A stretch of 64,000 nt of DNA from Allosphingosinicella sp. (GTDB lineage: Bacteria; Pseudomonadota; Alphaproteobacteria; Sphingomonadales; Sphingomonadaceae). Positions 28,507 to 32,838 of this stretch are shown piece by piece (the stretch's first letter is position 1; every line of letters starts with the position of its first letter). Under the pieces are notes generated by a model. That model searched no databases. It was given only the letters and a program-made list of their open reading frames with translations, and was not told where the DNA came from. The stretch spans positions 1,295 to 65,294 of the forward strand of contig DASQLT010000070.1 of the NCBI GenBank assembly GCA_035629855.1, read 5' to 3'. The translations under genes were made by a program, and so were the position numbers.

Positions 28507-28839
28507 TTATTCCGCCTTGGGCCGCTCGCGCTGCTTGACCTTGCGGACTTCGGCGAGCTGGCCCTTGAGGATGGCGAGCGCGTCGGCCTCCTCGCGGCTT
28601 AGCCCGTCCAGCTTCACATGGTCGATCAGCACCTCGAGCGCATCCCCGATCCGCCCGAGCTGGCGCCCGTAGCTGCCGACCTCGTCGAGCAATTTCTGCT
28701 CGATGTCCGGCCGCGGCGTCTGGCCGAGATTGACGTTGATCAGCCCGAGCTGAGCGCCCTGGTTCATGAAGGTCCAGGGATTGATCGCCTGCCAGAGCTT
28801 CTCGGGGGCGACGGAGAACTGGAATTTGCTGTCGGTCAT
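28507..28839 (-). CDS. hypothetical protein (about 110 aa)
   Basis: High-GC ORF with codon bias like its neighbours. No recognisable motif. The start is chosen at MTDSKFQF. Confidence 0.4.
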   Translation of the reverse strand: MTDSKFQFSVAPEKLWQAINPWTFMNQGAQLGLINVNLGQTPRPDIEQKLLDEVGSYGRQLGRIGDALEVLIDHVKLDGLSREEADALAILKGQLAEVRKVKQRERPKAE

Positions 28840-28960
28840 TGTCCAACCTTTCGCAGCTTGTGCTTTGATGTACAAAAGGGGCCAAATCGCGGGACGCGAC
28901 TTGGCGCTGGGCGGAATCCCGGCCTATGATGTGCCATCTGCGACATTCCAAAGGCTGAAC

Positions 28961-29848
28961 ATGGATTGCGACGTCTTTATCAGCTACGCTCACGAAGACA
29001 ATATTTGGGACCGTAATAATATATCTCATTTAGTGACGCAGCTTCGCGCTGCGCTCGGTGTTTTATCGCGAGACCGGGTGCAGTTCTTTATAGACCAGAA
29101 TATTAAGTGGGGTGATGTGTGGCAAGAGTCCGTAGATAAGAGTCTAGCCGGCTCAAAGTTTATGATTGCATTTTTATCGCCATCCTATTTCAAAAGTACC
29201 AACTGTCACAACGAATGGATGACGTTCAGAGATTTAGAACGGCAGCTAAGCTGTAATAATCTTATCCTACCTATATACTATCGGCTAGACCGGGAGTTCG
29301 ATGCGTACATAAAGGGTGAGCTGCTGGATGTAATCCCGCTGATCGAAGATTTGGCCGCTCGACAATATATCGATTGGCGCGATTTTCGGGATATGGATTC
29401 GAAGGGGAAGCGGCTGAAAATGGAAATCGAGGCCATGGCGGTCAAGATTGCGGACCGCATCGGAGAGATTTCCCCGGCCTTCAGCGCAAACCGCAGTACC
29501 GAAAAAGCCGAGCAACCTAGCCATGGAGAGATCGAATCAGTCGATCCGACTCTGGAGACAGAGTTCGTCCTGCGATTTAACGGCCTTACCAGCACTCAGA
29601 AATGTGTGCTTCGGCTAATCTACGAACGACCCCATAACGGCGAAATCAGCATCGATAAACTCGGTGAGATGCTCCGGGGAGTTGAGGAGGTATCCAGCAT
29701 GTCTGGTGACGAGCTTTACTACCGAGCAAAAGATTTGTCCAATCAAGGATTTATCGACTTCCGTTCGACCGGTCTAAAGCAAACGTCTATTGTAATTTTG
29801 CAGGCAGTGCAATTCGTCATGCATAAAAACAAATTGCTAAAAACCTGA
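28961..29848 (+). CDS. TIR-domain protein with C-terminal winged-helix-like domain
   Basis: MDCDVFISYAHEDN...FFIDQNIKWGDVW...FMIAFLSPSYFKSTNCHNEW is a TIR fold with the conserved Glu (E85). The last ~95 aa look like a wHTH (TQKCVLRLIYE...ISIDKLGEML...DELYYRAKDLSNQGFIDF). Low GC. The stop overlaps the next start (TGATG). Confidence 0.8.
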   Translation: MDCDVFISYAHEDNIWDRNNISHLVTQLRAALGVLSRDRVQFFIDQNIKWGDVWQESVDKSLAGSKFMIAFLSPSYFKSTNCHNEWMTFRDLERQLSCNNLILPIYYRLDREFDAYIKGELLDVIPLIEDLAARQYIDWRDFRDMDSKGKRLKMEIEAMAVKIADRIGEISPAFSANRSTEKAEQPSHGEIESVDPTLETEFVLRFNGLTSTQKCVLRLIYERPHNGEISIDKLGEMLRGVEEVSSMSGDELYYRAKDLSNQGFIDFRSTGLKQTSIVILQAVQFVMHKNKLLKT

Positions 29849-30645
29849 TGCCTACTTGTGTCGAGGTGCATGAGCATCTTATGCAGACGATGCCTGATTA
29901 CAGTCAGGCATGGCTAACCTACTATTCCGGACGTCAAAAGGAGATCATTGACAGCTGGCGGAGAGTAGATACTCGTATAGGCGAAGCTGGACCTGAATTG
30001 GAGGCGCTGGTTGTTACTGCTGAGAAGCATTTGCAAAAACTTTTCGTAAGAGTCGCGGAACGAGACCATCAGAACACTCAAGTGCGGAGTGACCTTGGAA
30101 GACTGGCATCGAACCAAGCTATTCTTGAACAGAAGTTTGCTTATTTTATGAACGAACTTTCAAAGTTTACGGCAACGTTGCACCGGCCCTCCGTTCTCTA
30201 CGGAAGTGTAAAGGAACTTGAGTCCCTTCAAGATTCCGCCGTTCGTCAATACAAAACCCGAGGAACAGGAGCTAAGCATCTTAATACGGACTATCGAGAC
30301 CTAGTAAGGTTTAGGCTCGTCTGTGATAGTATGCATGCTTTGCTAATAACTTGTACTCAATTCTGGGAATTCTTTTTTGACAATGTGATATCCTGTAAAA
30401 ACTATTATTTTGCGCCAGTGGCTAATTCTAAGGTTCGACCTTATCGAGGTATTCACTATCTGATCATAGACCGAACTGGATTTCCAAGCGAAATCCAGAT
30501 CATCTCCGCAGTCCGCGAAGCGGTGGGCGTCCTCGACCATAAGCTATTGTACAAATCGGATACCCACGGCGTACCGGACGATTATGTGGAATATGTTACG
30601 AAGTCCTCGATGTGCTCGAATCTACTGGATTTCGAGACGCCCTAG
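29848..30645 (+). CDS. RelA/SpoT-like (RSH, small-alarmone-synthetase-type) nucleotide pyrophosphokinase with N-terminal helical region
   Basis: DLVRFRLVC (D151xxRxR), KNYYFAPVANSKVRPYRGIHYLI, SEIQIIS (E215) and DHKLLYK align by eye with the synthetase motifs DxxGxR / YxSxH / E(V/I)QIRT / HxxxYK. Confidence 0.65.
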   Translation: MPTCVEVHEHLMQTMPDYSQAWLTYYSGRQKEIIDSWRRVDTRIGEAGPELEALVVTAEKHLQKLFVRVAERDHQNTQVRSDLGRLASNQAILEQKFAYFMNELSKFTATLHRPSVLYGSVKELESLQDSAVRQYKTRGTGAKHLNTDYRDLVRFRLVCDSMHALLITCTQFWEFFFDNVISCKNYYFAPVANSKVRPYRGIHYLIIDRTGFPSEIQIISAVREAVGVLDHKLLYKSDTHGVPDDYVEYVTKSSMCSNLLDFETP

Positions 30646-31398
30646 CAATTCGTCTCGCAGTCGGCGATACGAAGCGTAGCTCGCCTGCATCAAGGGGGCG
30701 GCATCGTCCAGGTCCACGCTTTGCCCGATTTCGACGCCAAATCTGCTGACGGAACGCCGCATCGCGACAACTCGCGACGCCAGGGCTAGCGCTTCGGCAA
30801 GGTGAACGGCTTCGCTTCGACTGAAGTGCAGCTCCCTCGCGGATGAATGCTGAATCAGGATTCTGAGGAAGGTTTGCAGATGTGCGGCGCCAGGGCCAAA
30901 TTTTAGCATGGCAGAGATTGACGCCAACTGGCGGCGCAATGGCCTGTTCAAGTCGTCGGAATCGTAAAGCGCGAAGAGCAGTGGGGTAGGTATTTGCGCC
31001 AGGCTGGTTTGGAAATCAGCCTTATATGTGTCAAAGGCACGTCGATCACCGGCAATAAAGGAAAGCGAAAAGACCTCGAAGATTTCAGTGAGCCACAACT
31101 CCTGAGACGGGGGAGGTCCTTTCAACCAGAACTTGATTGCCAGGGGCAAATCGAGATGGGCATTGTAAAGCGCCAGCCGAGTCTGCTCAAGCTCCGCCGG
31201 GCTGAGCATCCCGACGATCACGAGGTCCACGTCCGAATTGGCGCTCTCTTCGCCGCGCCCCATTGAACCCGACAAAGCGAGGAATTCCACCCGGTCGAGC
31301 CGCCCGAGTCGCCGATCGAATGCCTGGGCTAGACGTTTTCGGACAAGATCCTGGCCGAGCGGGCTGGACCGTCCGGCTGAACTGTCCAAGTCAGGCAC
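30622..31398 (-). CDS. MNT-type (Pol-beta superfamily) nucleotidyltransferase with C-terminal helical domain carrying an Rx4H motif
   Basis: LSGSMGRGEESANSDVDLVIV is the GSxxRGE...SDxD NTase signature. The C-terminal ~150 aa is all-helical with R194SEAVH199. GTG start at 31398 has no clear RBS. The 3-prime end overlaps the RSH-like gene by 24 bp. Confidence 0.7.
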   Translation of the reverse strand: MPDLDSSAGRSSPLGQDLVRKRLAQAFDRRLGRLDRVEFLALSGSMGRGEESANSDVDLVIVGMLSPAELEQTRLALYNAHLDLPLAIKFWLKGPPPSQELWLTEIFEVFSLSFIAGDRRAFDTYKADFQTSLAQIPTPLLFALYDSDDLNRPLRRQLASISAMLKFGPGAAHLQTFLRILIQHSSARELHFSRSEAVHLAEALALASRVVAMRRSVSRFGVEIGQSVDLDDAAPLMQASYASYRRLRDELLGRLEIQ

Positions 31399-31491
31399 GA
31401 CAGAAGCAAGCGCCAGTTCGAGTAGCCCTCGTCCTTTTTCTCAACATTCCAGCGCTCCACGCCTGTCCCGGCCAAGGCGCACCGCGGCTCT

Positions 31492-32838
31492 CTACCCGCT
31501 GTCCCGAGCCAGCCACTCTTCCAACCACTTGATCGTATAATTCCCCGCCAGGAAATCCGGCTCGTTGATCAGCTTCTGGTGCAAGGGGATGGTCGTCTTC
31601 ATGCCCTCGATCACGAATTCCTCAAGGGCCCGCCGAAGCCGCATGATGCAGCGTTCGCGGCTCGAGCCGTAGACGATCAGCTTGGCGATCATGCTGTCGT
31701 AATAAGGCGGCACCTTGTAGCCGACATAGAGGCCGCTATCGACCCGGACGTGCATTCCGCCGGGGGCGTGGAAGCCTTTGACGGTGCCGGGGGAGGGGGC
31801 GAAGGTCTGCGGATCCTCGGCGTTGATCCGGCATTCGATCGCGTGGCCTCGGAAGCTGATTTGCTCCTGGGTGCAGGAGAGCGGCTCGCCGGCGGCGATC
31901 CTGATCTGCTCGCGGACGAGGTCGATCCCGGTGATATATTCGGTGACCGGATGCTCGACCTGGAGCCGGGTGTTCATCTCGATGAAGAAGAACTCTCCAT
32001 TCTCGTAGAGGAACTCGATCGTCCCGGCGCCGCGATAGCCCATGTCGGCCATCGCCCGGGCGACGATCCCGCCCATTCGGTCGCGCTCCTGCGGAGTGAT
32101 GACGGGCGAGCCCGCTTCCTCGAGAACCTTCTGGTGGCGGCGCTGGAGCGAGCAGTCGCGCTCGCCGAGATGGATGGCGTTGCCCTTGCCGTCGCCGAAC
32201 ACCTGGAATTCGATGTGGCGCGGGTCGCCGAGATATTTCTCGATATAGACGGTGTCGTCGCCGAACGCGTTCTTCGCTTCCGAGCGTGCCTGGCTGAGCT
32301 GGCTGTCGAGCTCCTCCTCGCTCCGGACGATCTTCATGCCCCGACCGCCGCCGCCCGACGCCGCCTTGACGAGCAGGGGATAGCCCGTCGCCGCCGCCAC
32401 TTCGCGGGCCTCTTCCGGCCCTTCGACCGGCCCGTCGGAGCCGGGCACCAGGGGCAGGCCGAGCTTGGCGGCGGTGCGCTTGGCCTCGACCTTGTCGCCC
32501 ATCACCCGGATATGCTCGGGCTTGGGGCCGATCCAGATGATGTTGTGGAGCTCGACGATCTCCGCGAAGCGGGCGTTTTCGGACAGGAAGCCGTAGCCCG
32601 GATGGATGGCGTCGGCATGGCTGATCTCGGCCGCGGAGATGATCGCGGGGATGTTGAGATAGGAATCCGCCGCCGCCGGCGGGCCGATGCAGATCGCCTC
32701 GTCGGCAAGGCGCACGTGCATCGCGTCGGTATCGGCGGTGGAATGGACCGCGACCGTCTTGATGCCCATTTCGTGGCAGGCACGGTGGATTCGAAGCGCG
32801 ATCTCGCCGCGATTGGCGATGAGGACCTTCTTGATCAT
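31492..32838 (-). CDS. accC: acetyl-CoA carboxylase biotin carboxylase subunit
   Basis: [17 protein letters not shown]...GGGGRGM...[14 protein letters not shown]. Confidence 0.97.

Follow-up and report, generated by a model that had tools for sequence, protein, structure and literature searches.

The 265-aa product of ORF2, encoded within the 64,000-nucleotide window of Allosphingosinicella sp. DNA analysed here, belongs, by family profile and structure model, to a rare and as yet unnamed branch of the RelA/SpoT (RSH) enzymes. Its gene lies in a compact three-gene cassette, between the gene of a TIR protein (ORF1) and the convergent gene of a pol-β nucleotidyltransferase (NTase, ORF3), and the cassette resembles an anti-phage or signalling system of a kind not yet described. 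The island and its genes are as follows.

28840..31501, no strand: three-gene island of 2.66 kb, horizontally acquired (low GC and an empty site in relatives)
28881..28905, minus strand: terminator-like hairpin at the left island edge, with an 11-bp stem and then a T-rich tail (pattern match only)
28901..28930, plus strand: promoter-like site 5' of the TIR gene (consensus scan 9/12, pattern match only)
28961..29848, plus strand: ORF1, TIR plus C-terminal winged-helix-like protein, 295 aa from the Met at 28961, proposed effector
29848..30645, plus strand: ORF2, 265 aa, RSH / small-alarmone-synthetase-like, predicted pyrophosphokinase, the focal gene
30622..30645, no strand: 24-bp overlap of the convergent ORF2 and ORF3 3' ends, from the coordinates
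30622..31398, minus strand: ORF3, GlnD-like pol-β NTase, 258 aa (Pfam NTP_transf_2, 8e-5)

The sequence of ORF2 alone gave no match to Pfam RelA_SpoT at E ≤ 1, and direct scans of Pfam, NCBIfam and PADLOC and a single-sequence search of the PDB returned nothing relevant. Two full-length homologues (50 and 46% identity) scored 32.3 and 26 bits against RelA_SpoT (PF04607, gathering score 27), their matches spanning profile positions 3–111 of 113, and 37 of 52 family members matched this Pfam entry. A family profile built from 52 sequences matched every RelP and RelQ crystal structure in the PDB (RelP 6e-9, RelQ 1e-5), as well as long RelA at about 5e-3. The AF2 model, which also used 52 sequences, had a pLDDT of 93.3 and a pTM of 0.90. 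When this model was compared with the PDB by Foldseek, RelP and RelQ came first (E 5e-7, TM-to-target 0.6–0.7), followed by the N-terminal halves of Rel, and the best 50 matches were all RelP, RelQ, Rel or RelA. Phage RelA/SpoT proteins were among the BFVD matches. These results agreed with the sequence-only reading of ORF2 as a divergent RSH-like enzyme, and the remote-homology check, set beforehand as a possible refutation, assigned it to the RSH synthetase fold.

A word-indexed homologue search was insensitive for this family (3, 5, and 3 matches), and an exhaustive profile search was used. The family is small, numbering 145 clusters at 50% identity in a collection of 1.84 billion representatives, and no relatives were found in the viral contigs, plasmids, and phage genomes searched. 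Its members are annotated as ‘hypothetical protein', and neither PADLOC nor the NCBIfam names nor the literature searched include it.

The ATG of ORF2 shares one base with the TGA of the upstream TIR gene (TGATG). This long start is favoured because residues 1–11 align with homologues; one public annotation, P0001, opens the gene at Met12, giving 254 aa. The layout of the protein is given below.

29848..30087, plus strand: N-terminal helical extension, family-specific, about residues 1–80
30091..30636, plus strand: SAS-like synthetase core, about residues 82–263, by RelP/RelQ profile and fold matches
30211-13, plus strand: codon of K122, in YGSVK(122)ELES
30298-30315, plus strand: D151–R156, D(151)LVR(154)FR(156)
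30442-30456, plus strand: Y199–H203, Y(199)RGIH(203)
30490-30507, plus strand: E215–S220, ‘EIQIIS', E(215)IQ(217)IIS

The N-terminus had been described as a helical extension of 120 aa. It is helical in the AF2 model (residues 4–14, 16–25, 27–66, and 90–108; pLDDT 93), but the length was overestimated. The first three of these helices fall outside the RelP/RelQ alignments, both by sequence profile and by Foldseek, and since RelQ residue 11 aligns with ORF2 residue 82, the family-specific module that ORF2 adds to the RelP/RelQ fold is about 70–80 aa. The mean pairwise identity within the family was 20% in this extension compared to 37.5% in the catalytic core. The module may be a regulatory or input domain.

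The nearest profile and fold matches of ORF2 were RelP (SAS2; 6ewz/6ex0/6fgk) and RelQ (SAS1; 5dec/5ded) of Firmicutes. The identity to these enzymes is just 17–20%, while the single-domain synthetase fold and the RSH catalytic set are the same: the β1 Lys (K122), the Mg-binding Asp (D151), the β2 Arg (R156), the G-loop Tyr-x-x-x-His (Y199, H203), and Glu-x-Gln (E215, Q217), then a D/E-H ... K helix. Over 134 family members, K122, D151, and E215 were 100% conserved, and Y199, H203, Q217, R154, R156, and N185 at least 98%. The core motifs, called recognisable but divergent from the sequence, were all found in the reading frame, and their conservation goes far beyond what chance would give. With the roles of the catalytic residues taken from FaRel2 (PMC11782079), K122, D151, E215, Y199, and Q217 map onto its K66, D90, E145, Y128, and Q147, and R156 onto R95.

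Three positions set ORF2 apart from RelP and RelQ. The replacement of EVQIRT by EIQIIS had been read correctly and is family-wide: position 219 was hydrophobic (M, L, V, or I) in 132/132 sequences with a residue there, and never Arg. Position 220 was Thr in 104/132 and Ser in 26/132, so the Thr/Ser half of the motif is retained. Moreover, the donor-adenine-stacking Arg of β1 (FaRel2 R64, in R-x-K) is Ser120 in ORF2, and position 120 was Gly in 85, Asn in 19, Ser in 8, and Arg in 3 of 121 members. Since this Arg is missing family-wide, ATP as the donor is only assumed. The third position is a β2 Gly (FaRel2 G93), which is Arg154 in 98% of the family. On the other hand, the hydrophobic stretch FWEFFFDNVISC, earlier considered unusual, is indeed present but is no oddity of ORF2: in the family alignment and the AF2 model it matches the family motif WxxFFDxIxRCRNYY and covers strand β3 together with the conserved end of a core helix.

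Several basic residues common to the wider family are gone from the clade of ORF2 (K130 to S, R182 to S, and R/K191 to V), and ORF2 may for this reason have a different substrate or an altered or weaker activity. Together with the lack of a Pfam match, these losses could be taken to mean that ORF2 is a decayed or non-enzymatic RSH remnant whose motif divergence reflects loss of function. This is barely credible, as the reading frame is intact, the AF2 model is confident and compact, and the catalytic residues are invariant over 134 sequences from several phyla; we rejected it on this conservation. Because the deviations from the canonical motifs are themselves conserved in the family, they point to selection and not to decay. 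Judged from the alignment, the active site is remodelled yet under selection, and ORF2 is probably active as a predicted pyrophosphotransferase.

The GC content of the island is 46–58%, compared to about 65% in the flanks. It lies between accC and a 110-aa gene. In two Allosphingosinicella relatives (L008 and L009), these two genes share a 4-bp overlap and the synteny is identical on both sides; homology to them ends at window position 28838 and restarts at 31502. This empty site indicated that the cassette moves as a unit, whereas RelP and RelQ are stand-alone housekeeping genes. A search at the insertion (28840..31501) gave no integrase, no tRNA, and no terminal repeats. The cassette of the window sits among housekeeping genes.

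The identification of the neighbours of ORF2 as a TIR protein and a convergent pol-β NTase was confirmed by Pfam (TIR/TIR_2 and NTP_transf_2/Polbeta). The triad of a TIR-or-TM protein, an RSH-like protein, and an NTase was present in 15 distinct loci, the window counted (the others being L001, L004–L007, L010, L012, L013, L015, L028, L030, L034, L035, and L036), and three further loci were interrupted by contig ends. Alpha- and Gammaproteobacteria, Verrucomicrobiota, and Bacteroidetes are represented among these loci, and the convergent RSH/NTase 3'-end overlap is similar in L001, L030, and L031. The two neighbours, first regarded as merely candidate partners, are thus co-inherited and obligate in this cassette. 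The idea that all members of the ORF2 family are tied to TIR and NTase genes was rejected, since a divergent sister subgroup (L017–L027) lacks them; it adjoins sensor kinases, anti-sigma modules, and σ54 activators. Around the cassettes we found integrases (L004, L015), transposases (L005, L006, L028), HerA-like ATPases (L004, L028), a TIR-LD_cluster2 protein (L034), and a type I R-M system with DUF4238 (L035), a genomic context that suggests a role in defence. The cassette is absent from PADLOC, and no TIR + RSH + NTase system was found in the open-access papers and preprints searched.

The middle protein of the cassette, ORF1 in the window, consists of a variable head and a constant tail.

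28973..29416, plus strand: TIR domain of ORF1 (Pfam)
29213-29215, plus strand: codon of the putative catalytic Glu85 of ORF1, within the motif SPSYFKSTNCHNEW
29543..29845, plus strand: C-terminal domain of ORF1 of about 100 aa (TQK ... ELYYRxKDL), winged-helix-like, constant part

ORF1 matched TIR_2 (3.4e-16) and TIR (7.6e-12) in Pfam and is 43% identical to its Asticcacaulis orthologue from the Met at 28961. The TIR gene lies directly upstream of the RSH-like gene in 13 TIR-type cassettes, and the column of Glu85 is E in 13/13 TIR-type middle proteins; by analogy with known TIR NADases, this Glu may be catalytic. In L007 and L036 the gene is likewise placed, and two TM helices stand in place of the TIR domain. 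The C-terminal domain is kept both in these variants and in L010, where the TIR is degenerate, with E-values of 1e-13 to 1e-41 across cassettes. The winged-helix hints for it are sub-threshold (MarR 0.37, Cdc6-WH, TFIIIC B-block) and the assignment is tentative; to our knowledge, winged-helix domains have no established role as nucleotide-messenger sensors. The constant parts of the cassette are the RSH-like protein, the NTase, and this domain. That the TIR/TM head is the part that varies points to the middle protein, and not ORF2, as the effector. The L010 middle protein has a Glu-less TIR and is accompanied by an extra TIR protein of the CAP12/PycTIR type (PF10137, 2e-29), which also occurs in L011. 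TIRs of this type are a class of second-messenger-activated effectors. The TM swap was observed in two loci and the CAP12-TIR variant in two to three.

The third protein, ORF3, carries two conserved motifs.

31225-31269, minus strand: G44-S45 ... D56-x-D58 motif of ORF3, pol-β core
30889-30903, minus strand: K166-x-G168-x-G170 motif of ORF3, in the helical domain after the core

Among ORF3-type NTases, G44, S45, D56, D58, and G170 are invariant, and K166 and G168 are at least 90% conserved. ORF3 aligned by hhalign with residues 88–233 of E. coli GlnD (Prob 87%, E 3.9e-6) over 130 columns, which include both the GS...DxD motif of the pol-β core and the K-x-x-GG motif of the following helical domain. 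GlnE was ruled out as a relative, since only a 23-column core matched (Prob 6%). No HD, ACT, or further Pfam domain was found in the 258 aa of ORF3. Its N-terminal half matched MNT, ANT, KNTase, MntA, and HalB structures in the PDB. The likeness to MntA (type VII antitoxin) and HalB (Hailong) is weak and lies in this half, with a pol-β core in common, and the scores are far under the curated cut-offs (MntA model of NCBIfam, 17.8 bits against 60; PDB 5yep, 0.015). Furthermore, neither a HEPN toxin, as in the type VII toxin-antitoxin pairing, nor a HalA channel was found near ORF3.

MntA neutralises HepT by nucleotidylylation in type VII systems, and GlnD-like enzymes are a protein-modifying class. 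ORF2 could accordingly be a toxSAS that is neutralised by nucleotidylylation through the NTase or by binding of the TIR-WH protein, in an addiction or abortive-infection system with no diffusible signal. The weak MntA similarity, the one-base overlap with the TIR gene, and the 24-bp overlap with the NTase gene would fit such a pair. The toxSAS enzymes (FaRel, FaRel2, PhRel2, CapRel, Tas1) also have an RSH synthetase fold with a fused accessory domain, which in CapRel is a C-terminal sensor/antitoxin domain, and are encoded in tightly packed two- or three-gene operons in a mobile or defence context; the three-gene form is known for FaRel (PMC7229694). We nevertheless consider this improbable. 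No toxSAS chain, including the CapRel, FaRel2, and Tas1 structures, was matched by the family profile at E ≤ 1, and none was among the best 50 folds. The partners of ORF2 are a TIR/TM-WH protein and a GlnD-like NTase, whereas the antitoxins of toxSAS are pZFD, Tis1, Panacea, and SAH, and no known toxSAS antitoxin type was found by Pfam among the neighbours. The MntA score is well under its cut-off, a toxin-antitoxin pair leaves a conserved third enzyme and a swappable TIR/TM head unexplained, and the sister subgroup is partner-less beside signalling genes. The earlier view of ORF2 as a toxSAS without an obvious antitoxin was therefore not upheld. With RelP and RelQ nearest, a sister subgroup among signalling genes, and a pI of 6.6, i.e., not basic, ORF2 would be a signal-maker and not a toxin.

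RSH synthetases move pyrophosphate from ATP to a ribose 3'-OH. Our best explanation of the whole, held tentatively and at somewhat less than an even chance, is an anti-phage signalling module of the abortive-infection type, in which the RSH-like enzyme signals, the TIR/TM protein is the effector, and the NTase regulates. ORF2 would make a 3'-pyrophosphorylated nucleotide, an alarmone-type second messenger, and this signal would turn the effector on, either directly or via a complex held by the winged-helix-like domain. The TIR domain (as an NADase) or the TM domain of the middle protein would then act, and the GlnD-like NTase may regulate one partner, covalently or at the nucleotide level. CBASS and Pycsar/Pucsar offer an analogy, as there too a nucleotide-generating enzyme adjoins a TIR-or-TM effector in a mobile or defence-island context. 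Like their effectors, the middle protein would carry interchangeable killing domains on a constant domain (TIR in 13 loci, TM in L007/L036), and a CAP12/PycTIR-type TIR occurs in the L010/L011 variant. However, the generator in those systems is a CD-NTase or a cyclase, whereas the candidate here is an RSH pyrophosphokinase, and no cassette protein matched a CD-NTase or nucleotide cyclase in Pfam, PADLOC, or NCBIfam. In addition, the cassette has the GlnD-like NTase as an obligatory second enzyme, and the constant effector domain is winged-helix-like rather than SAVED, STING, or cNMP-binding. Two nucleotide-generating enzymes per cassette are unexplained by a simple generator-effector scheme.

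Stand-alone TIRs may also make signals, like ThsB in Thoeris, and the direction of signalling would then flip. The TIR-WH protein would sense infection and make an NAD-derived signal, the N-terminal module of ORF2 would be its receptor, and ORF2 would be a toxic effector restrained by the NTase, acting by ATP depletion via (pp)pApp or by pyrophosphorylation of tRNA 3' ends. As in Thoeris, a stand-alone TIR with a conserved, putatively catalytic Glu adjoins a second protein with an enzymatic domain. The N-terminal module varies more than the rest of ORF2. The best PADLOC match of ORF1 was PDC-S66 (2.8e-14), and its TIR is weakly similar to the ThsB type (PADLOC ThsB1, 3e-5; NCBIfam ThcB4, 0.005, with 15.8 bits against a cut-off of 220). 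In Thoeris, signals are made by stand-alone TIRs whose Glu is intact (preprint 10.64898/2025.12.03.692087), and RSH enzymes are proven toxic effectors (PMC7229694, PMC11782079). Even so, we hold this polarity to be unlikely. The TIR is dispensable in two cassettes, L007 and L036, which keep the RSH-like enzyme and the NTase and would lack a signal maker, and the TIR of L010 is Glu-less and stands beside a CAP12-type effector TIR. Moreover, the third gene is obligatory, the N-terminal module is unlike any known cADPR or His-ADPR sensor, and no known Thoeris effector or signal-binding domain (SLOG, Macro) was found in ORF2 or ORF3 by Pfam, PADLOC, or NCBIfam. No RSH effector was among the approximately 29 Thoeris effector types in the survey text and supplements, and the ORF2 family is nearest to the non-toxic RelP and RelQ.

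Each of the three proteins is a predicted nucleotide-modifying enzyme whose catalytic motifs are intact, and this would also suit a nucleotide-tailoring pathway. The TIR would cleave or cyclise NAD+, the RSH-like enzyme would pyrophosphorylate the product at its ribose 3'-OH, and an NMP would be added by the NTase; the composite nucleotide would target something outside the cassette, in signalling or inter-bacterial conflict and not necessarily in phage defence. Both the EVQIRT Arg and the β1 Arg are lost family-wide, a hint of non-canonical substrates, and the sister subgroup adjoins signal-transduction genes. This proposal is decidedly improbable, as the TM-for-TIR variants drop one ‘enzyme' while the rest is retained, a constant winged-helix-like domain is unexpected on a soluble pathway enzyme, and the cassettes are set among integrases, transposases, and R-M genes.

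RSH enzymes are known as alarmone synthetases in the stringent response and as toxSAS toxins, which produce (pp)pApp or attach pyrophosphate to tRNA. That the cassette represents a new immune class, with a messenger made by an RSH enzyme in place of a CD-NTase, cyclase, TIR, or Cas10, a new winged-helix-like sensor on interchangeable TIR or membrane effectors, and a GlnD-like safety switch, is for now rather doubtful. The cassette hypothesis is directly testable because it involves just 2.5 kb and three clear catalytic-site mutants. If true, it would be a third, conserved deployment of RSH enzymes and would broaden RSH research as well as the known range of nucleotide-based immune systems. Should the outcome be the conservative one, namely a new SAS subfamily that has obligatory partners, the classification of RSH enzymes would still be extended.

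The RSH-like gene, encoding a RelA/SpoT homologue, lies between a TIR gene and a nucleotidyltransferase (NTase) gene on the opposite strand:

28961-29848, + strand, ORF1, TIR protein of 295 aa
29848-30645, + strand, ORF2, RSH-like protein of 265 aa
30622-31398, - strand, ORF3, GlnD-like pol-β NTase of 258 aa

The ATG of ORF2 and the stop codon of the TIR gene have one base in common (TGATG), and the last 24 bp of ORF2 overlap the 3' end of the convergent NTase gene. The island forms a GC trough (TIR gene 47%, ORF2 46%, NTase gene 58%) between flanks of about 65%. The start of ORF2 differs between public annotations (window 29848-29880), being Met12 in P0001 (254 aa) and Met1 in P0153 (265 aa); the longer form is favoured because residues 1-11 are conserved in homologues.

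ORF2 alone gave no relevant match at E<=1 in Pfam, NCBIfam or PADLOC, and searching the PDB with the single sequence gave no result. Among 5.8 billion proteins, a word-indexed search returned just two homologues, 50 and 46% identical, both of which were recognised by Pfam RelA_SpoT over nearly the whole profile with 32.3 and 26 bits (gathering score 27). HMMER, run exhaustively over 1.84 billion cluster representatives with a three-sequence profile, yielded 145 proteins (107 at E<=1e-10), mostly of 260-300 aa and matched over their full length. The ORF2 family is very rare. RelA_SpoT matched 37 of 52 aligned members, and the profile built from these 52 sequences matched every small alarmone synthetase (SAS) crystal structure in the PDB, including RelP (6e-9), 2be3 and 3l9d (about 1e-7) and RelQ (1e-5). 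The long RelA/Rel structures followed at about 5e-3 to 0.2, and no toxSAS structure was matched at E<=1. The AlphaFold2 model of ORF2 reached pLDDT 93.3 and pTM 0.90 with 52 sequences. The best 50 Foldseek matches in the PDB were all RelP, RelQ, Rel or RelA (TM to target <=0.70), and the BFVD matches were phage proteins annotated as RelA/SpoT. Assignment to an unrelated family by remote-homology tools had been named in the sequence-only reading as a possible refutation; profile, PDB and Foldseek comparisons all led to RSH proteins instead. The RSH assignment of ORF2 was thus confirmed, since its homologues, family profile and fold match RelA_SpoT and the small alarmone synthetases.

The motifs on which that reading was based were all present in ORF2 (YGSVK122, D151-LVR154-F-R156, Y199-RGI-H203 and E215-I-Q217-IIS). 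To read the active site, 134 family sequences were aligned to the family HMM, and the columns were compared with the functions assigned to residues in FaRel2 and other alarmone synthetases (PMC11782079).

Active-site residues of ORF2, their FaRel2 counterparts and their conservation among 134 family sequences
K122, FaRel2 K66, 100%
S126, FaRel2 S70, Ser or Ala in 84%
D151, FaRel2 D90 (Mg2+), 100%
R156, FaRel2 R95, 98%
Y199, FaRel2 Y128 (acceptor base), 99%
H203, no FaRel2 equivalent mapped, 98.5%
E215, FaRel2 E145, 100%
Q217, FaRel2 Q147, 98%

That ORF2 is a pseudoenzyme is hardly credible. Stacking on the donor adenine is the role of a β1 Arg in FaRel2 (R64; PMC11782079); the family has Gly, Asn or Ser there (Ser120 in the window protein), and in place of the β2 Gly (FaRel2 G93) 98% of members have Arg (Arg154). 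The loss of the EVQIRT Arg proposed from the sequence also held, position 219 being hydrophobic in every family sequence and followed by Thr or Ser. Because these departures from the canonical pattern are systematic across the family, EIQIIS is, on the evidence of the alignment, a family signature under selection and not a product of decay. Moreover, three basic residues common in the family are missing from the clade of the window (K130 to S, R182 to S and R/K191 to V). An association of basic-patch size at the acceptor site with di- or triphosphate acceptors has been described (PMC11782079), so the acceptor of this clade may differ.

Two peculiarities ascribed to ORF2 were revised. The segment FWEFFFDNVISC, described as unusually hydrophobic, is the end of a core helix plus strand β3 and carries the conserved family motif WxxFFDxIxRCRNYY. 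The N-terminal extension, put at 120 aa, is shorter; residue 11 of RelQ pairs with residue 82 of ORF2 in the comparison of the family profile with the PDB, which leaves a family-specific module of about 75 aa. In the AlphaFold2 model this module consists of three helices, one of 40 residues. It has diverged about twice as far as the catalytic core (mean pairwise identity 20% compared to 37.5%).

Loci from genome and metagenome scans and contig look-ups were screened with profiles of all three cassette proteins. The complete triad was present in 15 distinct loci (the window, L001, L004, L005, L006, L007, L010, L012, L013, L015, L028, L030, L034, L035 and L036), and three more cassettes were cut by contig ends (L002, L011 and L031). 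The taxa include Sphingomonadales, Caulobacterales, MAGs of Methylomagnum, Verrucomicrobiota and Bacteroidetes, and a MAG labelled Nanoarchaeia. Asticcacaulis solisilvae has the TIR, RSH-like and convergent NTase genes in the same order within a neighbourhood unrelated to that of the window, and its three proteins share 43, 46 and 30% identity with their window counterparts, respectively. Judged from these loci, the TIR and NTase neighbours are obligate partners of the RSH-like enzyme in the cassette.

The NTase gene is downstream and convergent in the clade of the window (window, L001, L002, L028, L030 and L031), and the remaining three-gene cassettes are tightly packed co-directional operons in the order NTase-TIR-RSH. 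The inversion relative to these operons, together with the GC content of the NTase gene (30622-31398; 58% versus 46-47% for 28961-30645), hints that the NTase gene has a history of its own or was rearranged. A 1038-bp Logan contig from a different sequencing run encodes a protein 77% identical to the window NTase (P0170), which would indicate a second, closer copy of the cassette. In L036 the NTase is split into two overlapping ORFs (663-1100 and 943-1599; L036:663-1599), which either a frameshifted pseudogene or an error in the assembly would explain. The 9.3-kb contig of L004 (JANQNB010000017.1, 55% GC), binned as 'Candidatus Nanoarchaeia archaeon', carries a complete cassette, a phage-type integrase, a GP88-like gene and a HerA-like ATPase; its archaeal label could reflect mis-binning or a mobile element.

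The cassette is mobile, as two Allosphingosinicella assemblies with the same flanking genes show. In both, accC shares 4 bp with a conserved 110-aa gene, and the two genes are probably translationally coupled. Homology of the window to these assemblies stops at 28838 and restarts at 31502, and the three genes are therefore a 2.66-kb insertion into the operon junction. The features around it are:

28507-28839, - strand, 110-aa gene, widespread among sphingomonads and without a Pfam family
28881-28905, - strand, terminator-like hairpin (11-bp stem, T-rich tail) between the island and the start of the 110-aa gene
28901-28930, + strand, promoter-like site of the TIR gene, overlapped by the hairpin
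31492-32838, - strand, accC, whose product has final residues unlike those of relatives

No integrase, tRNA or terminal repeat was found at the window insertion. Elsewhere, integrases (L004, L015), transposases (L005, L006, L028), HerA-like ATPases (L004, L028), a type I R-M system with DUF4238 (L035) and a TIR-LD_cluster2 protein (L034) adjoin the cassette. The cassette was not found in the viral contigs, plasmids or phage genomes searched, and the window island was present in one soil-metagenome run only.

All NTase members share GS ... S-D-x-D and, about 110 residues on, K-x-G-x-G-G. The N-terminal half matches the MNT-type proteins ANT(4'), KNTase, MntA and HalB (E 3e-4 to 0.03). Profile comparison with E. 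coli GlnD covered 130 columns (Prob 87%, E 3.9e-6), and both motifs fell inside the alignment, pairing with GlnD GGYGRGELHPLSDVDLLIL and DIKSSPGGLRDIH. GlnE was also considered as a relative, and only a 23-residue core aligned. GlnD and MntA nucleotidylylate protein tyrosines, which makes a covalent regulatory role for the NTase plausible. A pathway in which all three enzymes tailor nucleotides is improbable.

The middle protein of the cassette combines an N-terminal TIR domain, whose putative catalytic Glu (S-x-x-Y-x-x-S-x-x-C-x-x-E) is kept in 13/13 TIR-type members, with a constant C-terminal domain of about 100 aa (motif TQK ... ELYYRxKDL) whose winged-helix matches were all sub-threshold. 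Two cassettes have strongly hydrophobic helices instead of the TIR (Kyte-Doolittle 19-residue maximum 2.3-2.4) and keep the C-terminal domain (E 4e-40 in L007 and 8.5e-24 in L036). In L010 the middle protein has a TIR-like part with Arg replacing the Glu, and an extra CAP12/PycTIR-type TIR protein adjoins the RSH-like gene in L010 (PF10137, 2e-29), L011 and a third contig.

L007:3154-3816, middle protein with two transmembrane helices and no TIR
L036:1589-2308, middle protein of the same type, also with a Pro-rich PPPVAPQDN repeat linker
L010:858-4280 and L011:1176-2416, four-gene variant in the order RSH-like gene, helical N-terminal domain with CAP12/PycTIR-type TIR, middle protein without the Glu, NTase

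Thus the RSH-like enzyme, the NTase and the C-terminal domain are constant across cassettes, and the TIR or TM head varies. In CBASS and Pycsar, a variable killing-type head on constant parts marks the effector. Mainly because the cassette shows the same pattern, the TIR or TM head would be the killing-type part and the middle protein the effector, with ORF2 acting upstream of it and not as a toxin. The opposite, Thoeris-like polarity, with the TIR as signal maker and ORF2 as toxic effector, is rather unlikely and is weakened by the two TIR-less cassettes. A toxSAS toxin-antitoxin pair in which the NTase would act as antitoxin in a type VII-like manner is improbable; it leaves unexplained both the third, swappable component and the closeness of ORF2 to RelP/RelQ.

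More divergent members of the family, 27-36% identical in the catalytic domain and with a recognisable N-terminal motif, are encoded at about seven distinct metagenomic loci (L017-L027). Neither a TIR/WH nor an NTase partner was detected at these loci. Examples are:

L024:78-4388
L018:838-1287
L022:2866-4233

Their neighbours are FIST-GAF-HATPase sensor kinases, an RsbW-like kinase with a zf-HC2 anti-sigma factor, and σ54 activators, which fit a signalling-nucleotide role of the family. This subgroup may represent a housekeeping signalling use, and its gene context argues against an intrinsically toxic enzyme.

A full-text search of open-access papers and preprints found no description of a triad of TIR, RSH/alarmone synthetase/toxSAS and nucleotidyltransferase. 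A 2025 survey of TIR-based systems gives 29 effector types, and no RelA/SpoT or NTase term occurs in its text or available supplements. Neighbours of TIR or NTase type go unmentioned in the toxSAS discovery paper (PMC7229694), and in Kaur et al. (2020) RelA domains figure solely as rare fusions within other conflict systems. PADLOC v2 and NCBIfam 20 hold no model for ORF2, and the family may correspond to an SAS subfamily already among the 30 of Jimmy et al. What appears to be new here is a subfamily of SAS-like enzymes whose donor site is remodelled and whose genes belong to a three-gene association not described before. The best supported reading of this association, which we hold tentatively, is a signalling cassette of defence type, in which the RSH-like enzyme would produce a 3'-pyrophosphorylated nucleotide, this product would activate the TIR/TM effector, and the GlnD-like NTase would serve as a regulator within the cassette.
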